From contig NC_057719.1 in assembly GCF_004010195.1 (NCBI RefSeq), positions 4,827,794 to 4,891,793 on the forward strand: a stretch of DNA of 64,000 bases, given 5' to 3'. Positions 4,251 through 42,412 of this stretch are shown in pieces. A program made the position numbers and the translations under genes. Under the pieces are notes generated by a model. The model had not been told where the DNA came from. It was given only the letters and a program-made list of their open reading frames with translations, and searched no databases. Origin of the DNA: Chiloscyllium plagiosum. Lineage: Eukaryota. Positions within the stretch are counted from its first letter, which is position 1. Every line of letters begins with the position of its first letter.

Positions 4251-4264
4251 TGTAATGTAATTTC

Positions 4265-5555: not shown

Positions 5556-5596
5556 TACTAAGCAAACTTACTCTATTCTCATCTAAATCATCTTTA

Positions 5597-6759: not shown

Positions 6760-7385
6760 ATTAAGAAGGTATACGGTGTGTTAGGTTATATTGGTAGAGG
6801 GATTGAGTTCCGGAGCTGCAATATCATGCTGCAACTATATAAAATGCTAGTGAGGCCACGCTTCAAATATTATGTACAGTTCTGGTCGCCATATTTCTGG
6901 AAGGATGTGGAAGCATTGGAAAAGGTGCAGAGGAGATTTACCAGGATGTTGCCTGGTCTGAAGGGAAGGTCCTATGAGGAAAGGCTGAGAGACTTTGGTC
7001 TGTTCTCATTGGAAAGAAGAAGACTAAGAGGGGATTTGATAGAGACATAGAAGATGATCAGAGGATTAGATAGGGTAGACAGTGAAAGTCTTTTTCCTAG
7101 GATGATGATGTCAGCTTGTACGAAGAGGCATAACTACAAATTGCGGGGTGATATATTTAAGACAGATGTCAGAGACCGGTTCTTTACTCAGAGAGTGGTA
7201 AGGGCGTGGAATACCCTACCTGCTAATGTAGTCAACTCAGCCACATTAGGGAGATTTAAACAACCCTTGGATAAGCACATGGATGATGATGGGATAGTGT
7301 AGGGGGATGAGCTGAGAGTAGTTTACAGGTCGGCGCAGCATCAAGGGCTGAAGAGCCTGTTCTGCGCTGTATTGTTCTATGTTCT
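6760..7385 (+). mobile_element. CR1 LINE 3' fragment
   Basis: LYKMLVRPRFKYYVQFWSPY..LEKVQRRFTRMLPGL..FFTQRVVRAWN; TTCTATG tail. Confidence 0.9.
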
Positions 7386-7595
7386 GAATAGAGGACCAAC
7401 AGGCAACACAGAATCGCTGAGCAGAACTGATAGCCAAGTTCCATTCTCATGAAGACAGTCTTAACTGTGATCTTGGGTTCTTGTCATGCTACATATAACC
7501 CCATCATACTATTCTATGTAAAATCTTCCTCACTGTTCTGTTTTGACACTATCACTTTGATTGCTTGTTATTATCTCTCTAGTTTGTACTGTTTT

Positions 7596-7837
7596 GGTAA
7601 AAACAATGACTGCAGATGCTGGAAACCAGATTCTGGATCAATGGTGCTGGAAGAGCACAGCTTTTATTCCTGATGAAGGGCTTTTGCCCGAAACGTCGAT
7701 TTCGCAGCTCGTTGGATGCTGCCTGAACTGCTGTGGCTTTTATTCCTGATGAAGGGCTTTTGCCCGAAACGTCGATTTCGCTGCTCGTTGGATGCTGCCT
7801 GAACTGCTGTGCTCTTCCAGCACCATTGATCCAGAAT
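7596..7837. mobile_element. Penelope-type inverted cassette with two tandem hammerhead-like cores
   Basis: Perfect 31-bp inverted repeat (7630-7660, 7807-7837), 76-bp tandem duplication, TSD TTTGTACTGTTTT(GG). Confidence 0.8.
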
Positions 7838-8559
7838 TTGTACTGTTTTGGATGACTTGTTACTTTGGTTAGAAGCCTGTCATGCGACTCTTATACTTGT
7901 CATGTTATTCCAGCCATTTAGTTTGCCTCTAGAACCATCTTATTTTTGATTTCTTTGTAATTATTGCTTTGCCTTAATTAATCAGATTATAAATCATCCC
8001 TTCACTTGCTGTTCAGCTATTAACACTGTACTCACACCATTTGACACCTTTGTTCACCTGCAAAGACTTGTTATTTAGCCTGTTGACATTCCACTCACAA
8101 TTTGACACTCTCAATTACCTGGAATTATCTTGCCATTATTTCTTTGCATATAAATTCTGTGCCTGTGCACTTCCCTCCATTTCAGCTGATGAAGGAGCAG
8201 CGTTTCGAAAGCTTGTGGTTTCAAATAAACTAGCTGGATGGTAACCTGGTGTTGTGTGACTTCTGACTTTGTCCACCAAAGTTCAACACCGGCATCTCCA
8301 TATCATAAACTGTCTTAGGCTAGAGATAACTCTGATATTGCAGTAGGAGAAAGTGAGGACTGAAGATCAGAGTCAAGAGTGTGGTGCTGGAAAAGCATAG
8401 CAGGTCAGGCAGCATCTGAGGAGCAGAAAAAGGGCTTTTGCCTGAAACGTCAATTCTCCTGCTGCTCGGGTGCTGCCTGACATTGCAGTGCCTATCGTGC
8501 CACTTGTGCTGCTTGTCAGATTTTGTAGAAGCATCACTGGTGATATTTCTCCAAGGACT

Positions 8560-9640
8560 GGAGCTGTCTGCTGGACGTTGTCCATGTCTCTAACTCATTT
8601 GGGAGAGTAGGTTACATTGTGACCCTGCACGCCATGAGCTTGGTGCTGGGTTTGCAGTCTTTGGCATCAAGGACTCTTTTTTTTTTTCCTCGGATGGCCA
8701 CTGGAAGTGATGTTAAACTTCATCATGAATGTCTACCCTCACTGAGAGGTGTCATCCAAAGTACAGGAATTGATCCACGTTGGCCAATAGTTCGCTAGGG
8801 ATCTTGATCACTGGGTTTGGCGGGATAGGGGTGATGTGGGGCTGAGGGGGGTGAACAGTGTTGTGAGGCAGGAGCAGGCTGGAAGAGGAGCTTTGTTCTC
8901 TGGATGTTTAGCCTAAGACCCATTCCTCCATACAGCTGTGAGAAGGTGTCAATGATGGTTTGAAGCCCAGTCACTGAGTGTGCGTGCACACAAGCATCAT
9001 CTGTGTACTGAAACTTGACAACAGAGGCTGGGGTTGTCCTGGGTGTGGACTGGGGGTGGCACAAGTTTCCAAGTTGTCCTGTAGAGAAACTCCACACCAG
9101 TGAGAAACAACATGGAGATGGGGTGGAGTTGGTCAGTAAGGAAGACAGAGAAGAGGATTAGTGCAATGACACAGCCTTACCCAATCCTGTTTTAGGGTCT
9201 GTTAGTGAGGGTTACGGGTTGGTTGTCATGCAGCCAATGAAGGACGGAGATAGGTTTCTGTACAGAGCCATGTTTCAGGAGGATGTTCCATAATCCCTCA
9301 TGTGTGACAAGGACTGAAGCCTTTGTGATGTCAAAGAAGACAATGAAGAAAGACTGCTTCTGTTCTTGGCACTTTCCTTAGATGTGTCCTGCTGTGAAGA
9401 TCATATCCACGGTGCCTCTTGATGAATGGAATCTGGATTATGAACCAGGAGATCTTTAGCTACTGGGTGGAGGTGATAGAGGAGTTTTGCAATGACCTTC
9501 CCTCTGGCAATAAACAAGAAGACCCCTCTGTAATTGCTGCAGTCACTTCTCTTTTCTGAATAAGGTCATAATCAGATGTCTCAGAGATTCATTAGCATGC
9601 TCTCTCCCTTCCGAATCAGGTTGATGAGGTCGTCAATGAC
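8560..9640 (-). mobile_element. Degenerate RTE-clade LINE reverse transcriptase fragment
   Basis: Minus ORF VVKFQYTDDACVHAHS..LQTIIDTFSQLY..MGLRLNIQRTKLLFQPAP, typical of the RTE/BovB RT YADD region. Confidence 0.7.
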
Positions 9641-10189
9641 TACACAGATGAGGAGTAATTACCTCTTTCGAAGGATCATGGAATCTGTGGAAATTCACAA
9701 ACCCAGAACATGGAGTTGCAGCCATGAGATCAGCCATCATTGTATTAAATGGCAGATCAGACTGGAGGGCTGAATGGCCTTCTGCTCCTAGTTCTAGAGG
9801 GAATAAGACCATCACAAATAGGAGCAGAAGTAGGCTATTCAACTCTTTGAACCCCTGTTCAATGAAAATATGACTGATTTTCTACTTTGGCCCAGGCTTC
9901 CAACTTTATCCCCATATCCCTGGATGATTTTAACACTTAGAAATCTATCACTCTCGGTCTTGAATGTACACAACAATTTCAAGTAGAGAATTCCAAAGAT
10001 TCACTACCTATGAATGAAGAAATTCCTCCTCATCTCCATCTACAGGAAATAACACAGGTGTGGGGCACTTTCCTGGAAACTAAAGGAAACAATGCATGAT
10101 GGTTTCTGTGCCATACGTTATAGTTCAGCAGAGAGACTGCACTGATGGCCTTTTTTGGTCCTCTGTCAATGGATGGCCTTGTCCATAAG

Positions 10190-11420
10190 ATCACAAGACA
10201 TTGGAGGAGAATTAGGCCAATCAGCCTCTCAGGTCAGCTCCACCATTCAACCATGGCTGATATGTTTCTCAATCCCATTCTCTTGCTTTTCCCTCACCAC
10301 CTTTGATCCCCTTACTAATCAAGAACTGTTTTAAATATATTCATTTGGCCTCCACAGCCCTCTGCAGCAATGAATTCCACTAATTAACTACCCTCTAGCT
10401 GAAGAAATTCCTCCTTATCTCAGTATCTTCACTCTGATGTAATGCCCTTAGGAACTCCTACTAGTGGAAACACCTCCTCCACATCCACACTATCTAGTCC
10501 TCTCAGTGTTCTAGAAGTTTCAATCAGATCTCCCTTATCACAAGAAACAGGAGGAGGAGTAGGCCATTTGGCCCTCAAGCCTGCTCCGCCATTCATCTTC
10601 TCTACTTTTATCTGTTCCCGTCATAATTTGAATATGTTTCTATAAGATCCCCCCTCCCCCATTCTTGTGAATGTCAATGAATATAATCCCAGTTTACTCA
10701 GCCTCTCCCCATAAGCCAATCTAGTGAATCAATCTAGTGAACCTCCTCTGCACCCCCTCCAGTGTCAGTCCATCCTTTCTCAAGTAAGGAGACCAAAACT
10801 GCACGCAGTACTCCAGGTGTGGCCTCACCAGCACCCTGTATAGCTGCAACATAACCTCCCTGTTTTTAAACTCAATCTCTTCAGCAACGAAGGACAAAAT
10901 TCCATTTGCCTTCCTAATTACCTGTTGTACCTACAGATCAACCTCCTGCGACACCAAGGTCCCTCTGCATTGCAGCATGCTGCAACTTTTTACCATTCTA
11001 GTAATAATCATTTTTACTGTTACTCCTACCAAAATGGATGACTTCACACTTACTAATATTGTACTCCATCTGCCAGACCTTTGCCCACTCACTTAGACTA
11101 TCTACGTCCCTCTAAAAGTTTATCAGCCCTCTGCACACTTTGCCCTGCCACTCAGTATCATCCGCAAACTTTGACACCCTACATGTGGTCCCCAACTCCA
11201 AATCATCTATGTAAATTGTGAATAATTGTGGTCCTAACACTGATTCCTGAGGGACACCATTAGTCACTGATTGCCAACCAGAAATTCACTTGTTTATCCC
11301 CATTCTTTGCTTCCTGTTAGTTAATCAATCCTCTATTCATGTTACTAAATTGCCCATAACACCATGCATCTTTATCTTATGCAGCATTTTGTGTGACACC
11401 TTGTCAAATGCCTTTTAGAA
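10190..11420 (-). mobile_element. CR1 LINE fragments
   Basis: Reverse strand encodes degenerate VPQ.SVLGP, FADD and [13 protein letters not shown] motifs, plus CR1 3' UTRs. Confidence 0.8.
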
Positions 11421-11676
11421 ATAGAGTCATAGAGATATACAGCATGGAAACAGACCCTTCGGTCCAACCCATCCATGCCGACCAGACATCCCAACCCAAT
11501 CTAGTCCCACCTTCCAGCACCTGGCCCATATCCCTCCAAACCTTTCGGATAAGGGCAGCACGTGGATGGGAATGCCATCACCTCAGAGTCCCCTCTCCAT
11601 TGTGTGACCGTCACTGTCTTCAAATCCCGGAACTGCCCACTGAACAATGCTGGGGTACTGACACCACATTGTAGCA

Positions 11677-12100
11677 GGGAGGAGAAAGTGAGGACTGCAG
11701 ATGCTGGAGATCAGAGTCGAAGAGTGTGGTGCTGGAAAAGCCCAGCTGGTCAGGCAGCATCCCAGGATCAGGACAGTCGACGTTTCAGGCATAAGCCCTT
11801 CAAAAGGGTTGAGGCTTGTGGCCCAAGGGGGCTGAGAGATAAATGGAAGGGGGATGGGATTGTGATAGGTAAGTGAAGGTGGGGGTGAAGGTGATAGGGC
11901 AGAGAGGAGGGTGGAGCAGATCGGTAGGAAGGAAGATGGACAGCGAGGACAGTTCAAGAGGGTAGTGCCGAGTTGGAAGGTGGATCTGGGAAAAGGTGGG
12001 GAGAGGGGAAATGAGGAAACTGATGAAATTCACATTGATCCTTTGTGGTTGGAGGGGTCCAAGGTGAAAGATGAGGTGTTCTTTCTCCAGGCGGGTGACT
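11677..12100 (-). mobile_element. Penelope-like 3' end
   Basis: Same terminal sequence as 1648-1970 (GCTGGAAAAG..GGTCAGGCAGCATCC..GACGTTTC). Confidence 0.7.
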
Positions 12101-12619
12101 GGGTGACTGGGGTTTGGCGGTGAAGCATTGTAAATGCCTGCGACTGCTCAGGTGAAATTAAAACCATTAAGAAGAGAGGACAGAAATACACGAACAACAA
12201 CTGAAATAAACAGGGCACAAAAATTGTCCAAAACGCAAAGTATGCTGGGAATTCTGAGCCAAGACAGACACACAAGAGACAATTCTGCCCAGGGACAATC
12301 CTTGCAAGATTGTGAGGATATGGTGAGGACAGGATAGGAGTGAGAGAACCTGCACAGTTACCGCCTTTGCTGTTTGAATTCGTGTATCGCTGGACATCGG
12401 AGTGCATCTGGGAAAATTAACAAACAGTGAAATTCACAACTAATCTTGGAGGAACTGTTGGGCAAAGTTCATAGCACAGAATCAGATAAGTTAATTGTTG
12501 TTTTAAGTCTGTCCAATAGAAAGGCTGCAGTAGTGGGTACAGTGGATTCTTTCTTCATTATATGTTTTTGGGGATAAGTCTCTTGATTAAACTTAAAATA
12601 GAAGCCATAGCTATTAATT

Positions 12620-13745
12620 AGATGGAGAAGCATTTCTTAAGTGTGTACAAGACAATTTTCTGAGTCAGTATGGGGATGTACCGACTAGAGAAGGTGTAAA
12701 ACTTGACCTACTCTTGGGAAATAAGGCAGGGCAGTTGACTGAGGTGTCAGTGGGGGAGCACTTTGGGGCCAGCGACCATAATTTTATTCATTTTAAAATA
12801 GTTGTGGAAAAGGATAGACCAGATCTAAAAGTTGAAGTCCTAAATTGGAGAAAGGCCAATTTTGACAGTATTAGGCAAGAACTTTCGAAAGCTGATTGGA
12901 GGCAGATGTTCGCAGGTAAAGGGACGGCTGGGAAATGGGAGGCCTTCAGAAATGAGATAACGAGAATCCAGAGAAAGTATATTCCTGTCAGGGTGAAAGG
13001 GAAGGCTGGTAGGTATAGGGAATGCTGGATAACTAAGAAATTGAGGGTTTGGTTAAGAAAAAGAAGGAAGCATATGTCAGGTATAGACAGGATAGATTGA
13101 GTGAATCCTTAGAAGAGTAGAAAGTCAGTAGGAGTATACTTAAGAGGGAAATCAGGAGGGCAAAACGGGGACATGAGATAGCTTTGGCAAAAAGAATTAA
13201 AGAGAATCCAAAGGGTTTTTACAAATATATTAAGGACAAAAGGGTAACTAGGGAGAGAATAGGGCCCCTCAAAGATCAGCAAGGCGGCCTTTGTGTGGAG
13301 CCACAGAAAATGGGGAAGATATTCATTTAGTATTTTGCATCAGTATTTATGGAAGATATAGACTGTAGGGAAATAGATGGTGACATCTTGCAAAATGTCC
13401 AGATTACATAGGAGGAAGTGCTGGATGTCTTGAAACAGTTAAAAGTGGCTAAATCCCCAGGACCTGATCAGGTGTACCCGAGAACTCTGTGGAAAGTTAG
13501 AGAAATGATTGCTGGGCCTCTTGCTGAGGTATTTGTATCATCGATAGTCACAGGTGAGGTGCTAGAAGACTGGAGGTTGGCTAACATGGTGCCAGTGTTT
13601 AAGAAGGGCGGTAAAGACAAGCCAGGGAACGATAGACCGGTGAGCCTGACCTCGGTGGTAGGCAAATTGTTGGAGGGAATCCTGAGGGACAGGACATACA
13701 TGTATTAGGAAAGGCAAGAACTGATTCGGGATAGTCAATGTGGCT
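12620..13745 (+). mobile_element. CR1 ORF2 fragment (endonuclease end, linker, start of RT)
   Basis: VGEHFGASDHNFI..WRKANFD; KSPGPDQVYPRTL..DWRLANMVPVFKKG..RPVSLTSVVGKLLE. Confidence 0.9.
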
Positions 13746-13749
13746 TTGA

Positions 13750-16700
13750 AATCATCTACTGGGTCCCTGTTGTCCACCTTGCTCGTGATGTCTTCATAGA
13801 GTTCCAGTAGATTAGTTAAACATGACCTGCCTTTCATGAACCCATGCTGCATCTGTTCAATGGGACAATTTCTATCCAAATATCTTGCTATTTCTTCCTT
13901 GATAATAGATTCAAACATTTTCCCAACTAGAAGTTAAGCTAACCAGTCTATAATTCCCAATTTTTCATCTACCTCGTTTTTAAAACAGTGGCATCACGTT
14001 TGCCCCAGAATCTAGCCACTTTTGGAAAATTACCACAAGTGCACTTACTACTTCTCCCGCCATCTCCTTCAGTACCCTGGGATGCATTCGATTAGGCCCC
14101 AGAGATTTGTCTACTTTTAGCTCCATTAGCTTGCCCAGCACTACCGATTTTGTGATAATGATTGTTGACAAGTCCTCACCTACCTTTGTCTCCTTGTCAA
14201 TTATTGGCATGTTATTCGCATCCTCTGCCGTGAAAACCAACACAAAATACCTGTTCAATGCCTCAGCCATTTTCTCATATCCCATTACTAAATCCTTCTG
14301 AACTCCACCAAGTACAGATGCAGAATATGACAAGCCTTTCATTCCTTGGATCATTCTTCTAAACCTCCTCTCGACTCTCTCCAAGGACAGCACATCTCTC
14401 TTTATATATGGGACCCAACACTGCTCTCAATATTTCAAATGTGGTCTGACCAAAAGATATAGGAGCAGAAATTAGGCCATTCAATCCATCGAGTCTACTC
14501 TGCCATTCAATCATGACTGATAGGTTTCTCAATTCCACTCTCCTGCTTTCTCCCTGTTACGTAGAACATAGAACAGTACAGCACAGCACAGGCTCTTCAG
14601 CCCTTAATGTTGTGCCGACCTTTTATCCTACTCTAAGATCAAACTAACCTACATTCCCTTCATTATACTATCTTCCATGTGCCTATCCAAGAGTAACTTA
14701 AATGTCTCTAATGTAACTGAGTCTACTACAACCATGGGCAGTGCATTCCACACACTCACCACTCTCTGTGTGAAGAACCTCCCTCTGACATCTCCCCTAA
14801 ATCTTGTTCCAATCACTTTAAAATTATACCCGCTCGTGATAGACATTTCCACCATGGGAAAAAGTCTCTGGCTATCCACTCTATCCATGCCTCTCATCAT
14901 CTTGTACACCTCTATCAAGTCACCTCTCATCCATCTTTGCTCCAGTGAGAAAAACCCTAGCTCCCTCAACCTTTCTTCATAAGACACACCCTCCAGTCCA
15001 GGCAGCTTCCTGGTAAATCTCCTCTACACCTTCTCTAAAGTTTCCACATCCAAATCTTCACCTATAATGAGGCGACCAGAACTGAACACAATATTCCGTG
15101 TGGTCTAACCAGGGTTCTATAGAGCTGCAGCATAACCTCATGGCTCTTAAACTCAATGCCCCTGCTAACGAAAGCCAACGCACCATGTGCCTTCTTGACA
15201 ACCCTATCAACTTGGGTGGCAACTTTGAGGGATCTATGGAGATGGACCCAGATCCTTCTGTTCCTTCACACTGCCAAGAATCCTGCCTTTAATCCTGTAT
15301 TCTGCATTCTGATTTGACCTTCTAAAGTGAATGACTTCACACGTTTCCAGGTTGAACTCCACCTGCCAGTTATCAGCCCAGTTTTGCATCCTGTCCAAGT
15401 CCCGTTGCAACCTACAATAACCCTCCACACTATCTACCACTCCACCAACCTTCATGTCATCGGCAAACTTACTAACCCACCCTCTACTTCCTCATCTAAG
15501 TCATTTATAAAAATCAGCAGAGGTCCCAGAACTGATCCCTGCTAAACACCACTGATTCAATTCTGTCCAGGAACACAAAGGTTAAAGCTTCTGTGCTCTG
15601 TGGTGAAATTGCGCAATTACAATTGAACAATAAGCATTTTTGAGAGACAGGACAGCCTTAATTACAAGAAAAGACCAATCAACTGTAATATGGTGCTATG
15701 ATTAACAGCAGGCTAATCCAATGATATTTCCTGGGAAACGGTTCTTGTTTTACCCCCGAGCTCCCAGCCTCATTCCTGATGAAGGGCTCTGGCCCAAAAC
15801 ATCGATTCTCCTGCTCCTCGGATGCTGCCTGATCTGCTGTGCTTTTCTAGCAGCACACTCTCAACTCTGATCTCCAGCATCTGCAGACCTCACATTCTCC
15901 TGGCCTAGGGGATGTATCTATCCTTATGATTTTCAAAATCTTCGGCACATCCTCCTTCCTAACATCAACCTGGTCATGCATATCAGTCTGTTGCACGCTG
16001 TCTTCTGAAATGTCAAGGTCCCTCTCAGTAGTGAATACTGAAGCATATACTTGTTAAGGACCTCCCCCACTTCCTCCAACTCCAGGCGCAAGTTCCCTTC
16101 ACAATCCCTGATCCCCTTGGCAATCAAGAACCTGTCTACCTCTGTCGTAAATATTCTAAATGACCTGGCCTCCACAACCTTCTGTGGCAATGAATCCCAC
16201 AGATACCCCACTCTCCATTCTAAACGGTTTGCCCTTTACTCTAAGATTGTGCCCTCGGATCCTAGTCTCTCCTGCTAATAGAAACATCCTCCCAACATCC
16301 ATTCTGCCCAGGCCACTCAGTATTCTGTAAGTTTCAATTAGATCACCCAATATCCTTCTAAACTCCATCGAGTATAGACCCAGAGTTCTCAAACATTCCT
16401 CATATGTTAAGCCTTTCATTCCGGGGATCATTCTCGTGAACCTCCTCTGGCCTCCTTTGGGAGGAGTGCATCCTTTCTGAGGTATGGGACCCAAACTAGT
16501 TCACAATACTCTAAATGTGGTCTGACCAGAGCCTTATAAAGCCTCAGAAGTACATCCCGGCTTTTATATTCTCAAAACAAATGCCAACATCGCATTTGCC
16601 TTCCTAATTATTGATTCAAGCTGCAGGTTTACCTTAGAACTCCCAAGTCCCTTTGCACTTCAGATTTCTGCATTTTCTACGCATTTAGCCTCTATTCGTC

Positions 16701-17660
16701 CTACAAAAGTGCATGACCTTACACTTTACCACGTATTCCATCTGCCACTTTTTTACCCACTCTCCTAACCTGTGTAAATCCTCTGCAGTCTTCCCACCTC
16801 TTCAATACCACCTGTCCCTCCATCTACCTTTGTATCATCTGCAAACCTAGCCAGAATGCCGTCAGTTCCTTCATCGAGATCATTAACGTATAAAGTGAAA
16901 GGTTGTGGTCCCAACACTGACTCTTGCGGAACACTACTAGTCACCAGCCATCCTGAGAAGGTTTCTTTTATCCCCATTGTCTGCTTTCGGCCAGACAGAT
17001 AATCTTCTTTCGATGCTAGTACCTTGCGTCTAACACCATGGGGCCTTATCTTACAGTGTGGTCTCCTGTGTGGCACCTTGTCAAAGGCACTCTGGAAGTC
17101 CAAGTTGATAACATCCATTGGCCCTCCTTGGTTTAAGCTGCTCCTTACCTCCTCAAAGAATTTGTCAGCTATGACCTCCTCTTGATGTAACCATGCTGAC
17201 TTTGCTCTATTTTACATTGCACTTCCAAGTATTCACAAATCTCATCCTTCGCAATTAACTCCAATATTTTACCAACGACCAAGGTTAGGTAAAATTTCCT
17301 GTCTTTTGTCTTACTCCCTTCTTAAACGAGGTGATTTTCCAGTCCTCTTGGACCGTCCTGACTCCAGTTATTCATCTACTATCTCTCCAGCTATTTCCTT
17401 CAGAACTCTAGGGTGTAGTCCATCTGGTCCAGGTGATTTATCCACCTTCAGACCTTTAAGTTTTTCTAGCACCTTCTCCTCGGTGATGGCCACCATACTC
17501 ACCTCTGCCCCCTGACTCTCCTCAATTTTTTTAGGATGTTACTCATGTTTTTCACCAGGAAGACTGACGCAAAGTAATTGTTCAGTTCCTCCAGCATTTC
17601 TTTGCTTCTCATTACTATCTCTCCAAAAGGTCCTCTTTTGTCTCTGTTTTGTCCTTTATA
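13750..17660 (-). mobile_element. Cluster of nested minus-strand CR1 fragments
   Basis: ORFs QHGFMKGRSCLTNLLE, LDFQSAFDKVPH, VPQESVLGP, FADD, FFTQRVVSVWNALP; several 3' UTRs; short Penelope end at ~15770-15900. Confidence 0.85.
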
Positions 17661-17924
17661 TATCAAAACCTCTTGGCTGGGGTAATGCTGAGATGGTGAA
17701 GGGTAGCATGCTGTGGGATGTAGTCAGGGGCACTCACGTTGAGAACTGAGTCTTCATTGGGGCGATCCTCAAATTGCTCCTTCCAACAAATATTCATTGC
17801 CTGACTATCTTAGATTAATAATTTCCTGCAATAACACTCCCACAGTGGATGTTTCTGTTCAATTCCCTGTAGTTACAATGAGTGTCCAAAAGGGAGAGCT
17901 CCTGTGAGCTTTACTCTACCATTG

Positions 17925-18355
17925 ATGTTGGACAAGCACAGCCGGTCAGGTAGTATCGAAGGAGCAGGAGAGTCAATGTTTTGAGCATAAGATGGGGGGT
18001 GATGGTGATAGGTTGGAGGGAGCGTGGAACGGATAGGTGGGAAGGAAAATGGACAGGGAGGTGAACTGTCCTACCTGTCCATCCTTCCTTCCTTTCAACC
18101 ATCCACTCTGACCTATCACTCATCCCCCCACTTTCATCTACCTATCGCATTCCCAGCTACCTTCCCCCCAGCCCCAACCCCTCCCATTTATCACTCAGCC
18201 CTCTGCTCCCCACACCCCACCCAATATTTGTGATGATGAGCTTATGCTCAAAACGTCGACTCTCCTGCTCCTCGGATGCTGCCTGACCGGCTGTGCTTTT
18301 CCAGCACCACACTTTTTGACTCTGATCTCCGGCATCTGTAGGCCTCCCTTTCTCC
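17925..18355. mobile_element. Inverted Penelope-type ends
   Basis: Left and right halves are reverse complements (CAGCCGGTCAGG / CCTGACCGGCTG). Confidence 0.7.
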
Positions 18356-18359
18356 TGTA

Positions 18360-19196
18360 TTATGGGTGTCTTATTGAGAAAGGGTGTCCTTGTGTGGTTT
18401 CCTTAATTTACTGTGTGTGCCACATCGAGTGTGCCCCTGGTGATTTCCTGTAGTTACAGTGTGTGCCTGGCAGGGAGCTCTCCTGTGTGAGTTACAGCAC
18501 TGAGAAGATATGTTGCAGAGGGAGTTCTACTGTAGAAACTCCTGTAATTCCCATGATGGTGCTAGTGTGTGATTTCCAGATGCTGGATTATGTATCTGGT
18601 GCGGAGAGAGAGGCGGTTCTGCATCATTTCCTTTCGCTGCTTTGTATAACACACATAGGATGTTCCTGCGGTGACAGACGATGTCCTGTAGGGGGTGCTC
18701 CAGTAGTGGGAGTGGAAGCCTGATAGGGGAATGTGTGCTCCTGCAATGACACTGTATGTCCAGCATGTGGCGCACTAATAGTGAAAGTGGTTACCCTCGA
18801 GGAGGGGGAATTGTCCTCATTGGAGGGTGCTCCTGCAATGGCACAGGATTTGTTCCACAGGATGTGGGGGAGGGCAGAGGTAGTAGAGGTGATAAATCAG
18901 TAACAATGGGTGTCTCTCAGGGAGGTACTGCTCCAGTGAGAATGGATTCCACACTCCATCTTTGACTGTGTCTGTCCAACAGAGGGCTTACAACAGTGAC
19001 CATGGCCTCCCTTAGAATAGGTGTTCCTGCAGTGACATTGGGTGCCCGATAAGGTATGCTCCTGTAGTGACATTGGGAGTCCCAAGGTTCTGATCCTGCA
19101 ATGTTACTGAGTGTTTGACAGAGGGCACTCCTGCAATGATAGCAGTTGTCCCAAAACTGCCCCCTGTCAGTGAGAGTGAATGCCCCACAGAGAGTG
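18360..19196 (+). repeat. Highly decayed units of the same minisatellite
   Basis: Remnants such as GGGGGTGCTCCAGTAGTG, GGGTGCTCCTGCAATG, GAGGGCACTCCTGCAATGA and TTCCTGCAGTGACATTGGGTGCCC. Confidence 0.65.
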
Positions 19197-20792
19197 TTCA
19201 AAGTTAAAAAACACACAACACCACGTTATAGTCCATCAGGTTTATTTGAAAGCTCCTTCATCAGGTGGTTGTGGAGAATATGACCATAAGAGAGAATTTA
19301 TAGCAAAAGATTACAGTGTCATGCAACTGAAATGATATATTGAACAAATCTGGATTGTTATTAAGTCTTTCATCTTATAGAATGGGTTGCAGGCTTTGGT
19401 TCATTAATATGTAAATCCCAGAACTTCTTTTAAATCACTTTCTCGAGATAACATAAGGTTTTATAACATAAGGTGACATCTCAGCTCAGTCAATGCATTA
19501 AAGGTGTGAGGTCAGAGTCTGTATGTATCCCAATCTTGAGTCAGACTGGTTCTATTTCCAAAGTGGAATTTACAATATATTACATGGATCGACGGCCTGC
19601 AGATTGTGCATTTTTTGAGCAAAATAGTATGTATCTGCAGATACAAAATCACCCCACAAGCTTATGATTAGATTCCCTAGTGTTGAAACAGGCCCTTCAG
19701 CCCAACACCGACCCTCCAAAGAGTAGCCCACGCAGACCAATGCACCTAACACTATGGGCAATTTAGCATGGCCAATTCACCCTAACCTGCACATCTTTGG
19801 ACTGTGGGAGGAAACCAGAGCACACCACAGGGAGACCATGCAAACTCCATACATACAGGTTCCCGAGGCTGGAATTGAACCTGGGACCCTTGGGCTGTGA
19901 GGCAGCAGTGCTAACCACTGTGCCGCCCCTTACGTGAATGTATGTACAGGAGAGACTGAGTGTGTGCATGTTATTGTGTGAGTGTATGTGAGAGAGTGTA
20001 TTTGTGTGTGTGAAAGCTTAGTAAAGTCTGTGTGTGGGTGTGATGGAGTATATGCCTGTGAGAGGGTGTTGGTGTGAGTGTGGGGGTGTATGTGTATGAG
20101 AGAACATATGTATAGACAGGGTCTGCGTGAATGTGTGAGTATGTAGGAGATGAAGGGCTTTTGCCTGAAACATCGATTTTTCTGCTCCTCAGATGCTGCC
20201 TGACCTGCTGTGCTTTTCCAGCACCACTCTAATCTTGACTCTAATCTCCAGCATCTACAGTCCTCACTTTCGCTACTCTGCGTTGTTGCCTATCCTGAAG
20301 TCTGCCTTGGAGGATGGTCACCCGAAGATCAGAGACTGAATGTCCCGGTCCGCTGAAGTGTTCCCCGACTGGGAGGGAATGCCCCTGTTTGGTGATTGTT
20401 GTGCAGTGCCCATTCATCCATTGTCGTAGCGTCTGCTTGGTCTCGCCAGTATACCTTGCCTCAGGGCATCCTTGTCTGCAGTTTATGAGATAGGCAACAT
20501 TGACTGAATCACATGAGTACCGGCCGTGTATGTGGTGGGTAGAGTCCCCATGTGTAATGGTGGTATCCATATTGACGTTCTGACGCATCTTGCAGTGGTT
20601 GCCATGACAGGGTTCTATAGTGTTGTGGTCGATGTTGACTGAAGGCTGGGCAGTTTGCTCTGAACAATCATCTGTTTAAGGTTTAGAGGTTTTTCAAGGC
20701 AAGAAGTAGAGGTGTAGGGAAGGTCTTGGTGAGATGCTCATCCTCATCGATAATGTGTTGAAGGCTGTGAAAAACTCACGTGCATACACTCA

Positions 20793-20837
<45 letters not shown>

Positions 20838-21384
20838 GCACACGTACACACATATAACTCTATGGGGTGAATTTGTATTTGCCGAATTATATTTGCATAT
20901 ACATTGTATTTTGCTCAAAAAATACACAGTCTGCAGGCAGTCAATACACAAAATATTTTGTAAATTCCACTTTAGAGATTGAACCAGTCTGACTCAAGAT
21001 TGGGATACAGACAGCCTCTGACCTCACCTTTAATACATTGCCTAATGACATATCACCTTTTGTTATAAAGCTTTAAGTTATCTCGAGAAGATGACTTAAA
21101 AGAAGTTCTGGAATTTACATATTAATGAACCGAAATCCATTCTAAAAGATGGGAGACTTAACAACAATCCAGGCTTGCTCAATATATCATTTCATAAGAC
21201 ACACAGTGTCTTATGATCTGTGTCTTATGATTGTATCCTCCACAGCCACCTGATGAAGGAGCAGCGCTCTGAAAGCTAGTTCTTCCAAATAAACCTGGTG
21301 GACTATAACCTGGTGTGGTGTGATTTTTAATTTTGTTACCCCCCCCCCCCCCACCCCAACAAGTTCAACAATGGCTCCTCCACA
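19197..21384 (-). mobile_element. Penelope-like element with inverted terminal segments, GIY-YIG remnant and nested V-SINE (19665-19930)
   Basis: YSCDSVNVAYLINCRQGCPEARYTGETKQTLRQWMNGH at ~20400-20530; 19200-19660 is inverted relative to 20855-21335; TSD-like CCACAGAGAGTG / CCACAAAGAGTG. Confidence 0.8.
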
Positions 21385-22430
21385 CCACAAAGAGTGAGCA
21401 CTCCTGCAGTGACAGGATATATCCCACAGGTGACAAACCTGCAGTGAAAGTGGGAGTCTTTCTGGGAATGGACTGGGAGTGTCGGTGGATGTGTTTCTGC
21501 TGTAAGAGAGGGAGTCCTGCATGGGGTGCAACAGCAGTGTCAGGGCTATCCCATTCTGTGGTATACAGGGGATACATCAGCAATGACAATGATTGCACCC
21601 CAATGGCTTTCCTTCAGTGGGACTGGGTAACCCACAGGTCATAGACCTGGAGTGAAATTGAGGATCTTACATTGGAGGGTATGTGCTCCTCCAATGACAG
21701 AGAAAGTCCTACAGGGGCCTTCCAGCAGTGACATTGTTATCCCATGAATGATGGGTCTAGATTAGAGTGGTGCTGGAAAATCACATCCGGTCAGGCAGCA
21801 TCCGAGGAACAGGAAAATCAACATTTCGGGCAGGATCCCTTCATTAGGAATGATTTTCCAGCACCGCTCTAATCTTGACTCTGATCACCAGCACCTGCAG
21901 TCCTCACTTTCGCCATGAATGATGGGGTCTGCTGCAGTGCCACTGTAGTGGGTGGGTACTCCTACTCATAGTGGCTGTCCCACAGGGGGCCCTCCTGCAG
22001 TGACAGTAGGGGTCCCACAGAAGATGAGAACTACTGCAGTGACAGTGTAAGTCCTACAGGTGGCGTACCTATAGTAAAAGTAGGTGCACATTGAGGCGGG
22101 ATGTTCTCTTGCAGTGAGAGAGGGTATCTCACAGAGGGAGCTCCTGGAATGACAGTATGTGTCCCACGAAAGAATTGGGGTGTGTCTCACAGGAGTATAA
22201 TGGTGCAGTGACAATGGAAGTCATACAGGGGATGCTGTAGTGGTGAGTGTGGCTGTCTCACACAGGCCTTGCTGCTGTGACAGTGAGTTAGAATGTATGT
22301 CCTGCAGTGACACTGGGTTTCTGATAGCAGGTGTGCCTGCAGTGACATTGTTTTTCCAATGGATGGCACTCCTGCAGCAACAAAATGTTTCTGACAGGGG
22401 GTGCTCCTGCAGTGAAACCAGGTTTCTGAC
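21385..22430 (+). repeat. Decayed units of the same minisatellite
   Basis: Recurrent CTCCTGCAGTGA and CCCACAGG remnants at roughly unit spacing, e.g. TCCCACAGGGGGCCCTCCTGCAGTGAC near 21978. Confidence 0.8.
21756..21912. mobile_element. Short Penelope-type end insertion
   Basis: 14-bp TSD CCATGAATGATGGG (21742-21755, 21913-21926). Confidence 0.75.
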
Positions 22431-24187
22431 AGGGGGCGCTCCTGCAGTGATGGTGGGTGTCCCACAGGGGGCACCCCTGCAGTGACGGTGGGTGTCCCAC
22501 AGGGGGTGCTCCTACAACCACGGTGGGTGTCCCACAGGGGGCACTCCTGCAGTGATGATGGATGTCTCACAGGGGGCGCTCCTGTAGCAATGGTGGGTGT
22601 GCCACAGGGGGCGCTCCTGCAGGGTCGATGGGGGTCACACAGGGAGCGTTCCTGCAGTGATGGTGAGTGTGCCACGGGGGGTGCTCCTGCAGTGATGATA
22701 GGTGTCCCACAGGGGGCACCCCTGCAGTGATGATGGGTGTCCCACAGGGGGCATTCCTGTAGGGACGGTGGGTGTCCCACAGGGGGGCGCTCCTCCAGTG
22801 ATGATGGGTGTCCCACAGGGGGTGCACCTGCAGTGATGATGGGTGTCCCACAGGCGGCGCTCCTGCATTGATGATGGCTGTCCCACAGGGGCGCTCCTGC
22901 AGTGATGATGGGTGTCCCACAGGGGGCACTCCTGCAGTAATAATGGCTGTCCCACAGGGGCGCTCCTGCAGTGATGATGGGTGTCCCACAGGAGGCACTA
23001 CTGCAGGGACAGTGGATGTCCCACGGGGGCACTCCTGCAGTGATGATGGGTGTCCCACAGGGGGCGCTACTGCAGGGACGGTGTGTGTCCCACAGGGGGC
23101 GCTCCTGCAGTGATGATGGGTGTCCCACAGGGGGCGCTACTGCAGGGACATTGGGTGTCCCACAGGGGGTGTTCCTGCAGTGATGATGGTTGTCCCACAG
23201 GGGGCGCTCCTGCAATGAAGATGGGTGTCCCACAGGGGGCACTCCTGCAATGATGATGGGTGTCCCACAGGGGGCGCTACTGCAGGGCCGGTGGGAGTCC
23301 CACAGGGAGTGCTCCTCCAGTGATGATGGGTGCCCCACAGGGGGCAATCCTGCAGTGACGGTGGGATGTTCCACAGGGGGCACTACTGCAGGGATGGTGG
23401 GTGTCCAACAGGGGCGCTCCTGCAGTGATGATGGGTGCCCCACAGGGGGCGCTCCTACAGTGACGGTGGGGTGTCCACAGGGGGCGCACCTGCAGTGATG
23501 ATGGGCCACAGGGGCACTCCTGCAGTGATGATGGGTGTCCCACAGGGGGCACTACTGCAGGGACGGTGGGTGTCCAACAGGGGGTGCACCTGCAGTGATG
23601 ATGGGTGTCCCACAGGGGGCGCACCTGCAGTGATGATGGGTGTCCCACAGGGTGCACTACTGCAGGGACGGTGGGGTGTCCCACAGGGGGTGCTTCTGCA
23701 GTGATGGTGGGGTGTCCCACAGGGGGTGCTTCTGCAGTGATGGTGGGGTGTCCCACAGGGGGCATTACTGCAGTGACGGTGGGGTGTTCCACAGGGGGCG
23801 CTCCTACAGTGACGGTGGGGTGTCCCACAGGGGACGGTCCTGCAGTGACGGTGGGGTGTCCCACAGGTGGCGCTACTGCAGGGACATTGGGTGTCCCACA
23901 GGGGGCGCTCCTCCACTGATGGTTGTCCCACAGGGGGTGCTCCTGCAGTGATGATGGGTGTCCCACAGGGGGCGCTCCTGCAGTGACGGTGGGGTGTCCC
24001 ACTGGTGGCGCTACTGCAGGGACATTGGGTGTCCCACAGGGGGCGCTCCTCCACTGATGGTTGTCCCACAGGGAGTGCTCCTGCAGTGATGATGGGTGTC
24101 CCACAGGGGGCACTACTGCAGGGACGGTGGGGTGTCCCACAGGGGGCGCACCTGCAGCGACGGTGGGGTGTCCCACAGGGGGCGCTC
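22430..24187 (+). repeat. GC-rich minisatellite, ~35-bp unit (CTCCTGCAGTGATGATGGGTGTCCCACAGGGGGCG), about 50 copies
   Basis: Directly visible tandem units of about 32-36 bp; explains the many Pro/Cys/His-rich ORFs on both strands. Confidence 0.97.
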
Positions 24188-24189
24188 TC

Positions 24190-24400
24190 GTGCCCCTTCC
24201 CGCCCATTGTCCTGTAAGCGGCCCCGCCCTCAACTGGATGCGAAGCCCCTCCTACATCATGCAGCCAATGGGAAGCTGGGGAAGCTAACCTCTGTGCGGT
24301 GATTGGTGCCTGCCGCTGTCAATCAGGGGCGAATTGGTTACTTGGTGCCGCTGGTTACAATGAGGTGCCGGTGCCGCGGGGGCGCCGCTTTGTTCCCGGT
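24190..24400 (+). promoter_or_regulatory. Probable TATA-less CpG-rich promoter of CCDC88C
   Basis: GC box CCCCGCCC at 24222-24229, AGCCAAT (CCAAT 24265-24269), ATTGG at 24302-24306 and 24333-24337; local CpG enrichment 400-600 bp upstream of the ATG. Confidence 0.65.
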
Positions 24401-24727
24401 TCATCCTGAAGCTGCTGGAACTGAATGAGAGCGGAGCCGCAGGGGTGACCGAGTTCCCCTCCGCTTTGTAACTCTCATAGCTCCCTGTGGACACATCAAG
24501 GCAGAGGCGCCGCTGGGTTTCTATGGTGTTGCGGGAGTGTGGCTGAAGTTTGCTATTGTCGCTTCTGGGGTCTTTTGGCTGTAATTCCCACCCCGAGGAC
24601 AGAGGAAGAAAGCTCGGGGAGGGGGTGATGTGAGGATTCCTGCCCCAAGACACTGAGGGGTGGCCCAGCCCGGGGCTAACGGAGTAATTCCCACCCTCTC
24701 CATGGAGTGATTCCCCTCCACCAGCCG

Positions 24728-24756
24728 CTCTCTCTCTCTCTCTCTCTCTCTTTCTC
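24728..24756 (+). repeat. (CT)n microsatellite just upstream of the start codon
   Basis: ctctctctct... run directly visible. Confidence 0.9.
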
Positions 24757-24783
24757 AGCGGCTCCAAACCGCAGCTTCTGACC

Positions 24784-24843
24784 ATGGAGGTGACCATCTC
24801 GGAACTGATGGGGCAGTTTCTGGACAGCCCCCTGGTGACCTGG
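24784..24843 (+). CDS. CCDC88C: CCDC88C (Daple) coding exon 1, HOOK-like N-terminal domain
   Basis: accATGG Kozak context; translates MEVTISELMGQFLDSPLVTW, matching the Daple N-terminus as I recall it ([20 protein letters not shown]); donor GTAAGT at 24844; 60 nt, phase 0. Confidence 0.93.
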
Positions 24844-25305
24844 GTAAGTGTGAGCCTGGGATCAGAGTCAGCCAGCTTTCACTTTACACTCCGTACGTGT
24901 GTGTTGCGGGGGAGGGAGATGGTGGCAAGAGTCTGAGTGGGGCTGTGAGAGTGTGGGGCTGGTGTGTATGAGGGGTTAGAGTGTGGAGGGTGTGAGTGGG
25001 GGAAGATTAGAGTATGCGTGGGTGAGTGTGTATCGAAGGAGTGAGGGTAGTGGTGAGTGTTTGTGGGGAATGATAGAGTGTGAAGGGTTAAGTGTGTGGT
25101 GGGGAGGTGAGTGTGGGGGGGGATAGTGAAGGGGTGAGTCTGAATGTGTGAGTCTCTGTTTTTGTAAATGTGATTTTTTTTTTTCTTTGGTTGTTTCTGG
25201 AGGTGGTGGGGGAGTCACTTTCTAACCTGTTTCACTGCCTGAGGTGGCAATTGTATCATTTTTACCTGGAACTGCATTTTAATATTTTTCTAAATCATCT
25301 TTCAG

Positions 25306-25406
25306 GTTAAAACTTTTGGACCAGTGGGAGGGAAGAGCAATGACAAAGTCACCACATACATGGATTTAGTGGATGGAGTGTTCCTGCACAAAATCATGTT
25401 GCAAAT
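25306..25406 (+). CDS. CCDC88C: CCDC88C coding exon 2
   Basis: Acceptor tcatctttcAG; translates [33 protein letters not shown](I); donor GTGAGT; 101 nt, in frame with exon 1. Confidence 0.93.
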
Positions 25407-28400
25407 GTGAGTTGGTCTCTGTCTCACTTTCGATATGACTCTTCTAATGGCTTCAGTGCCTTATCGTTTATTTCAAAGCCACATCTCCACCAATAGCACA
25501 GAATGAGCCTGCTCTAAGGTCCTGGGCTATGGGCAAGTTCAGAGGGATTCCCCTGATTTGTGCAGCAAAGTGGCTTCTTCACAAGTTGGCCCACCTTTTG
25601 CCCACCAGTAACCTCTCTGGCTCTTAACACCGTCTCGTAATTGTGCAGCAACTTTTTGAAGTACTGAACCGTGAGAGTTTCAGCTCAGGCAGGAAAGAGG
25701 GAGAAACACGGGTCGGGTTTCATTGTACACTGACTTGAGCTGTTGTTAGATTCTCAGTCTGTTGTCAGGGCGGAAGTGGAATCAAGGGTAAAGAGACCCT
25801 GATGAAGGCGGGAAGGGTTTTGCCATTTCGTTTAAAGAGGACAACAGATGTGAAGTTCGGTGGATAGCCTGTGGTAATGTGAGAGGTTGGAATAAGTAGC
25901 TGCCCCACTTAAAGGTACTAGGTTCTATTGTGAATATGCCAGAGAATGACCCAAAAACATCAGAGAATGGTGATATAAAATCACCATCTGTCTACAGTGC
26001 AAATTAACAAATGCAAACATCAACAACTTATTGCTGCAGAGCCTTTTAAAGTGTCCCAAAGGTGCTTCAAGGAAATCGAGAATAATTTAAAACTGTTCAC
26101 ATTTTCAAATGTCATCAATGTAAACTTTTTTTCAGGCCACAGACCATAATCAGTGGTGTCAGATCCCTCGCTAATCTTGCCCCTTTCCTAACTGTGAACG
26201 ACCTCCAGCCTGACAATCAAGTCCACTTCAACTTTTTAAAGTTCCCAAGAAACGTGTCCCAAAGTGCTTCCGGCTCAGGGTCATACAAATCCAGCAGAGG
26301 AAAAGGCTTTTCGGTCCATGCCATTTCTGCTGGTTCAAAGCAGCCACCTCACTATTGTATTCCTATTTTCCACCACTTGGCCCTTCACCTTGTATGCAAT
26401 CAGCATTATTGAAGAACTTCTGAAACATCATGAGAATGTCTGCCTCTACCTCCCTTACAGGCAGTGAGTTCCAGACTCCTGCCACCCTCTAAACCTCCTG
26501 CCCCTTACCTTAAATCCATGCCTGTCTTTTTTTCCCTCTGCCAAGGGGCCAAGCCACTTCTTCCTGTCTACCCTGCCTAAGTCATAGAGTCATAAACCCT
26601 TCCTATTCATACACCCATCCAGATGCCTTTTAAATGTTGCAATTCTACTAGCCTCCTTCATCATTTTGTAGATCTCAATCATGCCCTCTACACACAGACA
26701 TACAGACACCCACCTCCCAGGCTTTCCTGCTCAAAGGAAAACCACCCCAGTCTATCCAATCTCTCTTCATAATTGAAATGTTCCCTGGTAAATCTCCACT
26801 GCACCCTCTCCAGTGCTATCACATTGAATGTAGACCAATACAGTGCACCCTCCATAAATCATTATCAGGCACAATCTGAGCCACACAAGATATTAAGACT
26901 GTGTTATGATCCTTGCTGATGATTCTCTTGGTCAAGTCAGATAGCAGAGTGAAATCTAGCTATACAGATCACATGGGACTTTTTAGTTGGGTTTTCAAGG
27001 TGGTTAGTCACTGAAACATGTTCACATCAGGCTGCAGCTTTGCTTTAACAGACCACAACGTAAGAAATTCAAAATGAAAACAAGCTGTGTAAATAGATAC
27101 AACAGTTGGAATGATCGCAGTTTTCAAAATAAAATGTCTAAGTAGGGGTAATAATTTTCTGGGCTATGGGCAAGAGCAAGGGAGTGGGACTAATTTGAGA
27201 ATGCTTTCAAAATCTAGTACCCCTCTCATGTTCAATGGCCTCCAAGAATGCAGAATCATTGTCTGAACGTATCGGTAGGTGTACAATATCGAGTCATAGC
27301 TTTCACTGTGTTAAATGCTTGCTGGTGTGAAATGGTACCTGTGGATAGAACAATAGTGCAGCAGATTTCTTTATGGTAACTCAATCCGGTGCTTGGATGT
27401 TTGATGGTTTTCTCTAATATTTCGGTGGTTGAGTCGGTGTGTGGAAGAGTCTGGGATTTTGCAGGCTTTGAGAAGTGATCGAGTGACGCTGTGCATGACC
27501 CCACTGATCAAAGTATTTTAGATTCACTTGTATTCCACAAGGTCACAAAGAAAGCAATTTCCTTGTTCCACAAGTGTAACTAGGAGCCGAGAAGTGTAGA
27601 CTGGGAGAACCCTTTGTGTTAGTATTTGTTGGAAGCTGTTGCCACAAACAGCTGAGCCATTTTAGAAAGTGCTCTATCAGTCATACAGCACAGGAGGAGG
27701 TGCTTTGGCCCATTATACTTATACTGACACAGCCAGTGATTCACCTCCTTTCTTCCCTTTGGCTTTGTGCCTTTTATTTTCCCTGAAAGGATCCACTCAC
27801 TTGGGTATGAGTTCATGTTATGTGTTGGAACTCTGCAGTTAAGTCCAACAAGTGATCCTGAGGTGGAATTCTCTTCCAGACTGCATTCCCTCTCTATCCC
27901 TGTAACCTCCACTTCCAAAACCCTTTGAAAAATGAGTTCAACCACTGCAGCTTCCCCTGCCTTCCTTCGCTCCACCATTAGCACGTTCAGCTCTGGAATT
28001 CCCTGGATTTTCTTTGAACCATCTTCTCCTCTTCCTCTCCATTTTTATTAAAAACCTACCTCTTCAACTGAGCTTTGATTGCCTGGTGTAATAGCTCCTT
28101 GTGTGGCTGAGCCCAAGATTTGCTTGGTAACACTTGCACCTCGCCAGAGGCTCTATACAAGTTACATTGAATCCCAATGGATAGAAGAATATAACAATGT
28201 GAAATGAGTACTGCCTCTCTGAACCCAGTTCCTGCTGGGTGTTGGCAAAGTTGGCACCTAATTAATCATCTGACTCAAAGGGGATGAGGCACAGGGGAAG
28301 AAATTGGCAGGAATACCCAGGGGCAACATGAAGAAAGATTTTGTTTTGCATAGTGAGTTGTTGTGATCTGAAAGGCACTGTTTGCAAAGGGCAGTAGAAG

Positions 28401-28817: not shown

Positions 28818-30372
28818 ATGTGGAGGTGCCGGTGTTGGACTGGGGTGGACAAGGCCAGAAGTCACATGACACCAGGTTATAGTCCAACCGGTTTATTTGG
28901 GATCACAAGCGAATGGAGGGAAGTGCTCAGGCCCAAAATTTATAGGCAGAGAGATCAAAAGATCATGCAACTGGTGTGAGTGGAGTGTTGACCGGTTGAA
29001 TAGCAAGTGAAGGGGTGATCTATAATCCGATTAATTCAAGCAGAGGTAATTACAAAAAATTAAAAGTAAGGTGGTGCTGGAGACAAACCAAGCAGCTGGA
29101 ATAACAGGGTAGATGTAAGAGTCATATGCCGAGGGTCTAAGCAAAGTAACAAGTAACCCACAACTGTACAAACTAATTAAGATAGAGATCATAACATGTT
29201 ATCAAGGTGATGATGTCAAAACATGACCGTAAGGAAGACTTTACCATGTAACAGTATGGTGGGGTTACATTTGCACAACATGAACTCAAGATCACGGGCG
29301 AAGGTGACTTCATGGGTATAGAACTTGGCTATCAGTTTCTGCTCGGTGACTCTGCATTGTTGTGTATCTTGGAGTTCGCGTACCCGAAGATTGGAGGCTG
29401 AATGTTTCTGTCGATGAAGTGTTCCCTGACTGAGAGGGAACACGGCCTGGGGGTTGTTGTGTGGTGTCCATTCGTCTGTTGTTGTAGCTTTTCCTTGGTC
29501 TCACCAATGTACCATGCCACGGGGCATCCTTGCCTGCAGGTCATGAGGTAGACAATATTAGCTGATTCACACGAGTATCTGCTGTGTACCTGGTGGGTGG
29601 TGTCCCACGTGTGACGGTAGTGTCTGTCGATGATCTGACCTGTCCGCAGAGGTTGCCGTGGCAGGGTTGTGTGGTGTTGTGGTCGATGTTCCCCTGAAGG
29701 CTGGGTAGTTTGCTGCAAACCAGGATCTATTCAAGGATTGCCGGTTGTTTGAAGGAGAGATGTGGAGGCATAGGGATGATCTCGGTGAGATGTTCATCGT
29801 TATCAATAACCTAGCTGCAAAGGACATGGTGTAGTTGCTCCGTTCTGGGGAAATACTCCAGGGATGACGCAGGGTACTCTCAGTCGTGTCCTGTGTCTGA
29901 CTTCTGAGGAGGTTGTTGCAGTTTTTCGCCGTGACACGTCAGAACTGTCGATCGATGAGTTGAGTATGGCACCCAGCTCTTATGAGGGCATCCTTCAGGT
30001 GTCCATCGCATTCCTTCTTGTCTGAGCAGATCTTGTGTAGAGCTTGTCTGTACGGGGTGGCTTCTTTAACATGTTTAAGATGGAAGCTTGAAGTGTAGCA
30101 TTGCGAAATTCTCGTGGGTTTGTGGTGGAGTGAGGTACTGAGGTGGCTGTCCTTGATGGAGATGTGTGTGTTCAAAAATAAAATGGATACTGAAGAGAGG
30201 TCTATGGTAAGTCTGAAGCTGGGATGAAACTCGTTGTGTAATAATTTCAGTGATCCCTTGCCATGAGTCCAAAGGAAGAAAATGTCATCAATGTATCTGG
30301 TGTTTAATGTTGGTGGGAGGTCTTGTACAGCAAAGAAGTCTTGCCTGAACTTGTGTATGAAAATGTTGGCTT
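28818..30372 (-). mobile_element. Degenerate Penelope-like element (RT plus GIY-YIG), antisense in intron 2
   Basis: Minus strand RYIDDIFFLWTHG (~30260-30300) and YSCESANIVYLMTCRQGCPVAWYIGETK; terminal repeat CACCAGGTTATAGTCCAAC. Confidence 0.85.
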
Positions 30373-42303: not shown

Positions 42304-42412
42304 AGACCCAAGGCCAACTAATCAAAGAGTCAACAAACACGTCAACAATGATGTCAACTTGCGTGTTCAGAACCTTACCATATTAGTCAGACACATAAAG
42401 AATTACTACCAG
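42304..42412 (+). CDS. CCDC88C: CCDC88C coding exon 3
   Basis: T-rich acceptor ending gatttAG; the AT+A split codon gives (I)[36 protein letters not shown]; donor GTACGT; 109 nt; [18 protein letters not shown] is Daple-like. Confidence 0.93.

Follow-up and report, generated by a model that had tools for sequence, protein, structure and literature searches.

We asked whether a tandem repeat that abuts a gene promoter in a shark could be an array of CTCF binding sites, and what could have produced it and kept it there. The repeat lies in a 64,000-nt stretch of the Chiloscyllium plagiosum genome (the window, whose numbering is used throughout). An original prediction, made from the letters of the window, had read it as an insulator or loop "super-anchor" of about 50 CTCF sites in a single orientation.

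Results

A minisatellite adjoining the CCDC88C promoter

Tandem Repeats Finder returned one array at this locus (22394–24187; period 35, 51.4 copies, 81% matches), which we parsed from position 22406 into 51 units: 33 of 35 nt, 11 of 36 nt, four of 34 nt, two of 32 nt, and one of 30 nt. This bears out the proposed array of ~35-bp units next to the promoter. Its single orientation into the gene was confirmed as well, with 38 CTCF matches on the + strand and 0 on the − strand at p<1e-4 (using a provisional matrix, described below). When the modal unit, an exact copy of which is found at 23943–23977, is read from the C of CTGCAG, an upstream motif of 10 nt comes first, then 6 nt of spacer, then the core of 19 nt. 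The features of the locus are collected in Table 1.

Table 1. Features of the array, its decayed upstream part, and the adjoining gene (window coordinates)
Feature	Coordinates	Strand	Basis
Decayed, older units of the young minisatellite's repeat, 24 of them reliable	17867..22406	+	profile score of at least 15
Dispersed repeat inserted in the old field	17902..18356	.	numerous blastn hits in other parts of the window
2.2-kb composite insertion in the old field; nested dispersed repeats	19200..21390	.	
Short dispersed repeat inserted in the old field	21745..21915	.	blastn
Young 35-bp minisatellite, 51 units, all pointing into CCDC88C	22394..24187	+	
138-bp (four-unit) higher-order duplication, 97% identical, recent, promoter-proximal	23818..24093	+	
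Putative TATA-less promoter	24188..24400	+	GC-box hexamers, CCAAT boxes
CCDC88C/Daple first coding exon, ATG at 24784	24784..24843	+	
CCDC88C coding exon 2	25306..25406	+	
CCDC88C coding exon 3	42304..42412	+	

The assembly is scaffolded, with two N gaps in the window (52006–52813, which has similar sequence on both sides, and 60623–60913), which may make the number of units counted here inexact. Open reading frames across the array are repeat-derived and were set aside as non-coding, and Rfam at gathering thresholds gave 0 matches in 16000–26000. The array has eight non-overlapping matches to a G-quadruplex pattern on the + strand and none on the − strand; these could contribute to its instability. 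A single-unit pattern had 0 loci in metagenome contigs, a collection poor in vertebrate DNA, and a two-unit, two-part pattern, which matches the window itself five times, had 0 loci in metagenome, prokaryote, and viral contigs. Since the scanned collections hold little vertebrate DNA, these blank scans are uninformative on other sharks.

The downstream gene is CCDC88C/Daple, as had been proposed: 88 of 89 residues over three exons of the N-terminal HOOK-domain region are identical to Daple of Hemiscyllium ocellatum, a likeness that most likely places the source among carpet sharks near Hemiscyllium, and a protein search with exon 3 returned, among the matches listed (120 of 252), named entries that were mostly Daple or CCDC88C. 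Single exons searched against Pfam and PDB gave nothing informative; HOOK_N reached E=0.14 in one search, and the Atlas offered HOOK_N leads below 0.9. The prediction had placed a GC box ~35 bp past the array end, and GC-box hexamers lie at 24200 and 24224; CCAAT boxes are present at 24265, 24302, and 24333, and no TATAAA occurs between the array and the ATG. Immediately 5' of the exon with the ATG, a run of CT with CAG after it (24728–24759) resembles a splice acceptor and suggests that there may be a non-coding first exon at ~24350–24650. Two − strand CTCF core matches face the array, one in coding exon 1 (24823–24841; 14.0 bits, provisional matrix) and one over the GC box (24222–24240; 12.7 bits, provisional matrix). 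On the other side, no neighbour gene was recognised in 1–17600 (a strict splice-site scan gave one candidate exon on the + strand and two on the − strand, where it ran to 22400). This region is made up mostly of LINE- and SINE-like pieces. The window also has perfect or near-perfect two-copy duplications at 292–372 (40 bp) and 7660–7811 (76 bp), which are either recent or assembly artefacts.

An older, decayed field and polar turnover

The array continues upstream of where the original prediction had begun it, as decayed units that reach 17867. Among 40 candidates in 17688–22406 we kept the 24 with a profile score of at least 15 and dropped 16; the background maximum was 12.4 on the + strand and 14.8 on the − strand. 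Mean identity to the young consensus is 67% for the old units and 89% for the young ones. Three dispersed-repeat insertions divide the old field. We take the first to be SINE-like. The composite insertion is bounded by terminal inverted copies of ~450 bp that are 78% identical; its inner part matches 29382–29809, where GIY-YIG frames sit that presumably belong to a Penelope-like family.

Nearest-neighbour identity climbs toward the promoter (rho 0.80 across all 75 units and 0.45 across the 51 young ones, units not being independent), and the recent four-unit duplication falls where units with a 7-nt spacer prevail. The array is old and polar, with its youngest units at the promoter end, the pattern of a polar minisatellite. 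There is also a hint, in the old units, of a preceding lineage that had CG at core positions 2–3: T stands before G in four of the five old units with G at position 3, versus three of the 19 others (Fisher p=0.014, post hoc). Such a CG decays to CCA, the canonical triplet, which speaks for a genuine CTCF site as the ancestor.

The repeat unit as a predicted two-part CTCF site

The composite CTCF consensus laid out by Bowers and Cockerill (PMC12885311) consists of an upstream motif, a spacer, and a core, and the layout of the modal unit agrees with it. The modal core fits the core 14-mer of Zuo 2023 (PMC10287918), CCNNNAGGGGGCGC; 12 places in the array match it exactly, and 20 match it in relaxed form. 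The T of TGCAG lies 18 nt from core position 1 in 37 of 51 units, the offset of the extended-spacing library R2L in that study, which found binding at this 6-nt spacing, slightly weaker; the first seven bases of the modal unit are identical to its reference upstream site. According to the same source, intermediate cores benefit most from the upstream motif, and defective cores are not rescued by strong flanks. The repeat unit is as long as the duplex in the crystal of CTCF ZF3–11 (35 bp; PMC10484683). Both motif parts are common to lamprey, chicken, and human (PMC5504073) and shark CTCF has 11 fingers (PMC7471279), so shark CTCF probably reads the same site. The proposal that core plus upstream motif span about one repeat unit thus holds more strongly than it was argued, given the 6-nt spacing, the shuffles reported below, and the use of both parts from lamprey to human.

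Other details of the prediction fared unevenly. The copy at 23051–23069 does agree with the quoted consensus at 16 of 19 positions, and TGCAG(T/G), said to lie about 12 nt upstream of CCCACAG, does so at 12 nt in 22 of the 27 cases with both present and at 13 nt in the other five. The 19-mer ascribed to each unit, however, has nine exact copies in 22430–24187. Nor do the variants stay within the degenerate consensus: CCASYAGRKGGCRS, taken strictly, has 0 matches in the array, whereas CCNNN followed by its 3' half matches at 20 places.

Matrix scores were computed with counts taken to be those of JASPAR MA0139.1, whose column sums are coherent (913 to 908). With this provisional matrix, 38 of 51 cores pass at p<1e-4, 22 at 1e-5, and none at 1e-6. 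The modal core scores 15.4 bits and the best core 16.2, out of a possible 27.9, the loss of the modal core falling mostly at core positions 3 and 4. A score of 8, the cut-off of a skate study (PMC10115646), is reached by 38 of 51 cores. The rest of the window holds 20 CTCF matches at 1e-4 (provisional matrix), seven of them in old units.

To compare the motif with shuffled units, a check set beforehand, we shuffled one modal unit as a circle and required TGCAG at offset 17 or 18. By the provisional matrix the modal unit stood far above its shuffles: among 20,000 shuffles of each kind, 27 (mononucleotide) and 86 (dinucleotide) reached its core score, and none in either set had core and TGCAG together; in a larger run, the counts were 503 and 0 of 400,000. 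With both parts absent together from 400,000 shuffles, the CTCF likeness does not stem from G richness. The figure nevertheless describes a post-hoc match in one of many minisatellites, for which, short of a genome-wide count, a chance match and origin from a true site are indistinguishable. A matrix-free pattern for the complete site is present in 14 units, versus 0 in 100 shuffles of the window, and the matrix gives 15 to 20 of 51 units depending on threshold.

Departures from the canonical site

ZF7 reads CCA at core positions 1–3 (PMC10484683), and core position 3 is C instead of A in 48 of 51 units, which makes the ZF7 triplet noncanonical. The deviation at position 4 should cost less than the matrix says, because ZF6 Met424 makes no contact with that base (PMC10484683). 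Two upstream positions are read base-specifically, a T by ZF10 and a C by ZF9 (PMC10484683); on the assumption that the register moves one base to accommodate the longer spacer, 34 of 51 units have the T, and A mostly takes the place of the expected C. Variants that damage the core are common, though absent from the prediction, and include C>T at position 12 (10 units), deletions in the G run (four), and changes at position 10 (four). Spacers are 7 nt long in 11 units and shorter than 6 nt in three; nine of the 11 7-nt spacers fall in the last 15 units, on the promoter side, where just 4 of 15 units have canonical spacing. Crowding adds a further constraint: ZF1–7 span core positions 1–21 (PMC10484683) and the next TGCAG begins at +18, so neighbouring units cannot both engage all fingers. 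In vitro, CTCF is sensitive to methylation at core positions 2–3 only (PMC5694663; PMC6600276); the single CpG of the modal core, at positions 12–13, lies outside this pair. Motif prediction in silico, by itself, proved unreliable even at the human Hox clusters (PMC5504073).

CpG content and the case for an unbound repeat

CpG observed/expected is 0.26 in the array, compared with 0.27–0.28 in bulk DNA and 0.52 in the promoter segment (24188–24860), and CGC is retained at the core CpG in only 24 of 51 units. This decay makes germline methylation likely, and because the ratio resembles that of bulk DNA, the array may be methylated and closed. Both figures suit a reading in which the array is neutral and methylated, a GC-rich minisatellite with essentially nothing bound to it. 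Recombination or slippage beside an open promoter would drive it, and its likeness to a CTCF site would be a chance match or the dead relic of one. Indels that fall in G runs and the spacer regardless of their effect on the site are in keeping with this, as is the coincidence of the active ends of some human minisatellites with recombination hotspots (PMC2599865). What makes us regard this reading as unlikely is the joint motif match, found in fewer than 1 in 400,000 shuffles, together with a modal core that lacks the one methylation-sensitive CpG (PMC5694663) and the standing of simple tandem repeats as a documented class of CTCF-bound DNA (PMC5007689).

Tests of selection on the site

A tempered form of the original model supposes selection. 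Many medium-strength sites of one orientation would add up to a strong barrier against cohesin, with built-in redundancy, at the 5' edge of CCDC88C, as an insulator or loop super-anchor that shields the promoter from transposon-rich upstream DNA. Our tests of this were small, relied on the provisional matrix, and compared paralogous units of one locus. In the young array, the 25 distinct non-CpG core alleles were no milder than position-permuted ones (P=0.60; unit-weighted P=0.37), and CpG decay showed no bias, with a tolerated product in 15 units and a harmful one in 10 (p=0.42). The old units at first speak for selection: seven still match at p<1e-4 (provisional matrix), and their core changes were milder than expected by permutation (P=0.007, 114 events). 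The signal was lost, however, without core positions 3–4 (P=0.31, 93 events), and harmful CpG decay products led tolerated ones 12 to 5. We set the P=0.007 aside since it rests on positions 3–4 and fits CpG decay of an older lineage. Conservation limited to the CTCF motif was not seen among the paralogous units (P=0.60, 0.37, 0.31), and the substitution tests give no support for selection on the CTCF site. Selection could act on a redundant array in its entirety and leave each unit only lightly constrained.

Two further observations weigh against a selected anchor, the noncanonical spacers in 11 of the last 15 units and a model-predicted dose effect that depends on strong sites (PMC11828424). 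They are set against a unit equal in length to the ZF3–11 footprint (PMC10484683), a repeat kept at one promoter despite three insertions, reports that tandem sites increase insulation and that the upstream motif is required for this (PMC12885311; PMC11828424), and a CTCF orientation code at skate TAD borders (PMC10115646). We consider selection for such a barrier unlikely. The ~50-site super-anchor as first described is not supported by the analysis, the cores being middling, the full geometry confined to 14–20 of 51 units, the footprints overlapping, and selection not seen (P=0.60, 0.37).

A bolder variant seems to us quite improbable. It would have a self-renewing anchor, its 35-bp unit matching the ZF3–11 footprint and long kept at the promoter edge by polar turnover. 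A CpG-free core would have replaced a methylation-sensitive, CpG-bearing one, so that CTCF could still bind dozens of medium-affinity sites of one direction where the DNA is methylated, and the strength of the Daple boundary would depend on the number of copies.

The array might instead be a germline or promoter platform, bound by CTCFL/BORIS together with CTCF or by another factor, that would tune Daple transcription instead of insulating; the CCC-NNN-GGG stretch of the unit resembles what we take to be an AP-2 site. Clustered CTCF sites are enriched at active promoters with BORIS co-bound (PMC4562119), 171 human repeats, mostly simple tandem ones, have both CTCF and BORIS bound to them (PMC5007689), and shark CTCFL is testis-expressed and has 11 fingers (PMC7471279). 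An upstream motif at exact spacing suggests an architectural type of site, though (PMC12885311), and we find such a platform very unlikely.

Discussion

A proposed amplification of a CTCF-type site by neutral turnover

A minority of the units retains a complete site, and the array is old, polar, and of one orientation. The explanation we favour, with moderate confidence and judging from the DNA itself, is that the minisatellite grew from one two-part CTCF-type site by neutral turnover and is probably bound in part. A single such site at the CCDC88C promoter would have been amplified, after which ordinary polar turnover would renew the array at its promoter-side end while the far end decays. 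CTCF may bind some of the 14–20 intact units with medium affinity, the upstream motif offsetting the weak ZF7 triplet. Simultaneous binding would be limited to part of the units, since ZF1–2 of one molecule would cover the upstream motif of the next. The bound units could form a clustered anchor, its ZF3 side turned toward the gene, that would stall cohesin arriving from the gene side; skate TAD borders obey a CTCF orientation code (PMC10115646). Under this explanation CTCF binding would be a by-product of amplification, with a unit sequence not visibly selected for it.

What makes the array unusual is how many copies it has, how old it is, and the length of its unit, which equals that of the ZF3–11 footprint. 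If bound, it would provide a natural dose series in which many dense, medium, same-orientation CTCF sites can be set against few strong and well-spaced ones as a cohesin barrier. The class of CTCF-site minisatellites, which has been described from mouse and human, would then reach into cartilaginous fish, and new anchors would be seen to arise by tandem amplification as well as by transposition. If unbound, it would warn against reading function into a motif match within a repeat, even a 1-in-400,000 one. Shark CTCF ChIP-seq has been published (Hara 2018; cited in PMC7471279).

Comparison with known systems

A literature search returned no report of this array, or of any shark CTCF tandem array, among the matches listed; CCDC88C went unmentioned in the 15 listed of 1,668 matching papers. 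We dropped an analogy with subtelomeric 61-bp repeats, supposed to carry CTCF sites, after finding the sites placed ~300 bp downstream of the 29-bp repeats (PMC6600276). The human minisatellites MS32 and CEB1 resemble the array in their GC-rich unit, single active end, and complex turnover; they lie beside recombination hotspots (PMC2599865), and their units are not known to be CTCF sites. The macrosatellite DXZ4/Dxz4 likewise carries CTCF sites in a tandem array (PMC3491370), but its units are of kilobase size and conserved across mammals in the CTCF motif only, whereas the shark units show no motif-confined conservation. In the HRNR VNTR, matches to a two-part CTCF motif scale with length, with a folding effect that is predicted only (PMC10234305); that repeat is a coding-exon one of several kilobases, whereas the shark repeat is non-coding and its 35-bp unit is itself the predicted site.

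Clustered CTCF sites defined by ChIP are likewise staggered by tandem arrangement and favour promoters, although the shark sites are predicted from sequence. The 2xCTS cores shown have linkers of 30–40 bp; in the shark array the 19-nt cores stand only 16 nt apart, so full 11-finger footprints overlap.

Closest in description is mouse DXPas34, which lies next to the Tsix major promoter and is built of 34-bp monomers that each contain a CTCF site (PMC3149622). Both consist of tandem 30–40-bp monomers adjacent to a promoter, most of them with a CTCF motif (here a predicted one), a likeness drawn by description; DXPas34 itself is lineage-restricted and variable among relatives (PMC3149622). DXPas34 is rich in CpG, located on the X chromosome, and involved in X inactivation, whereas the shark array is CpG-depleted (observed/expected 0.26) and lies upstream of a protein-coding gene. 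The shark array is further distinguished by its 51 young and at least 24 decayed units; its unit also includes an upstream motif at canonical spacing, which DXPas34 is not known to have. As read from its sequence, the array shares the architectural part of the DXPas34-type description but not its CpG richness, and DXPas34 is probably its closest known counterpart.
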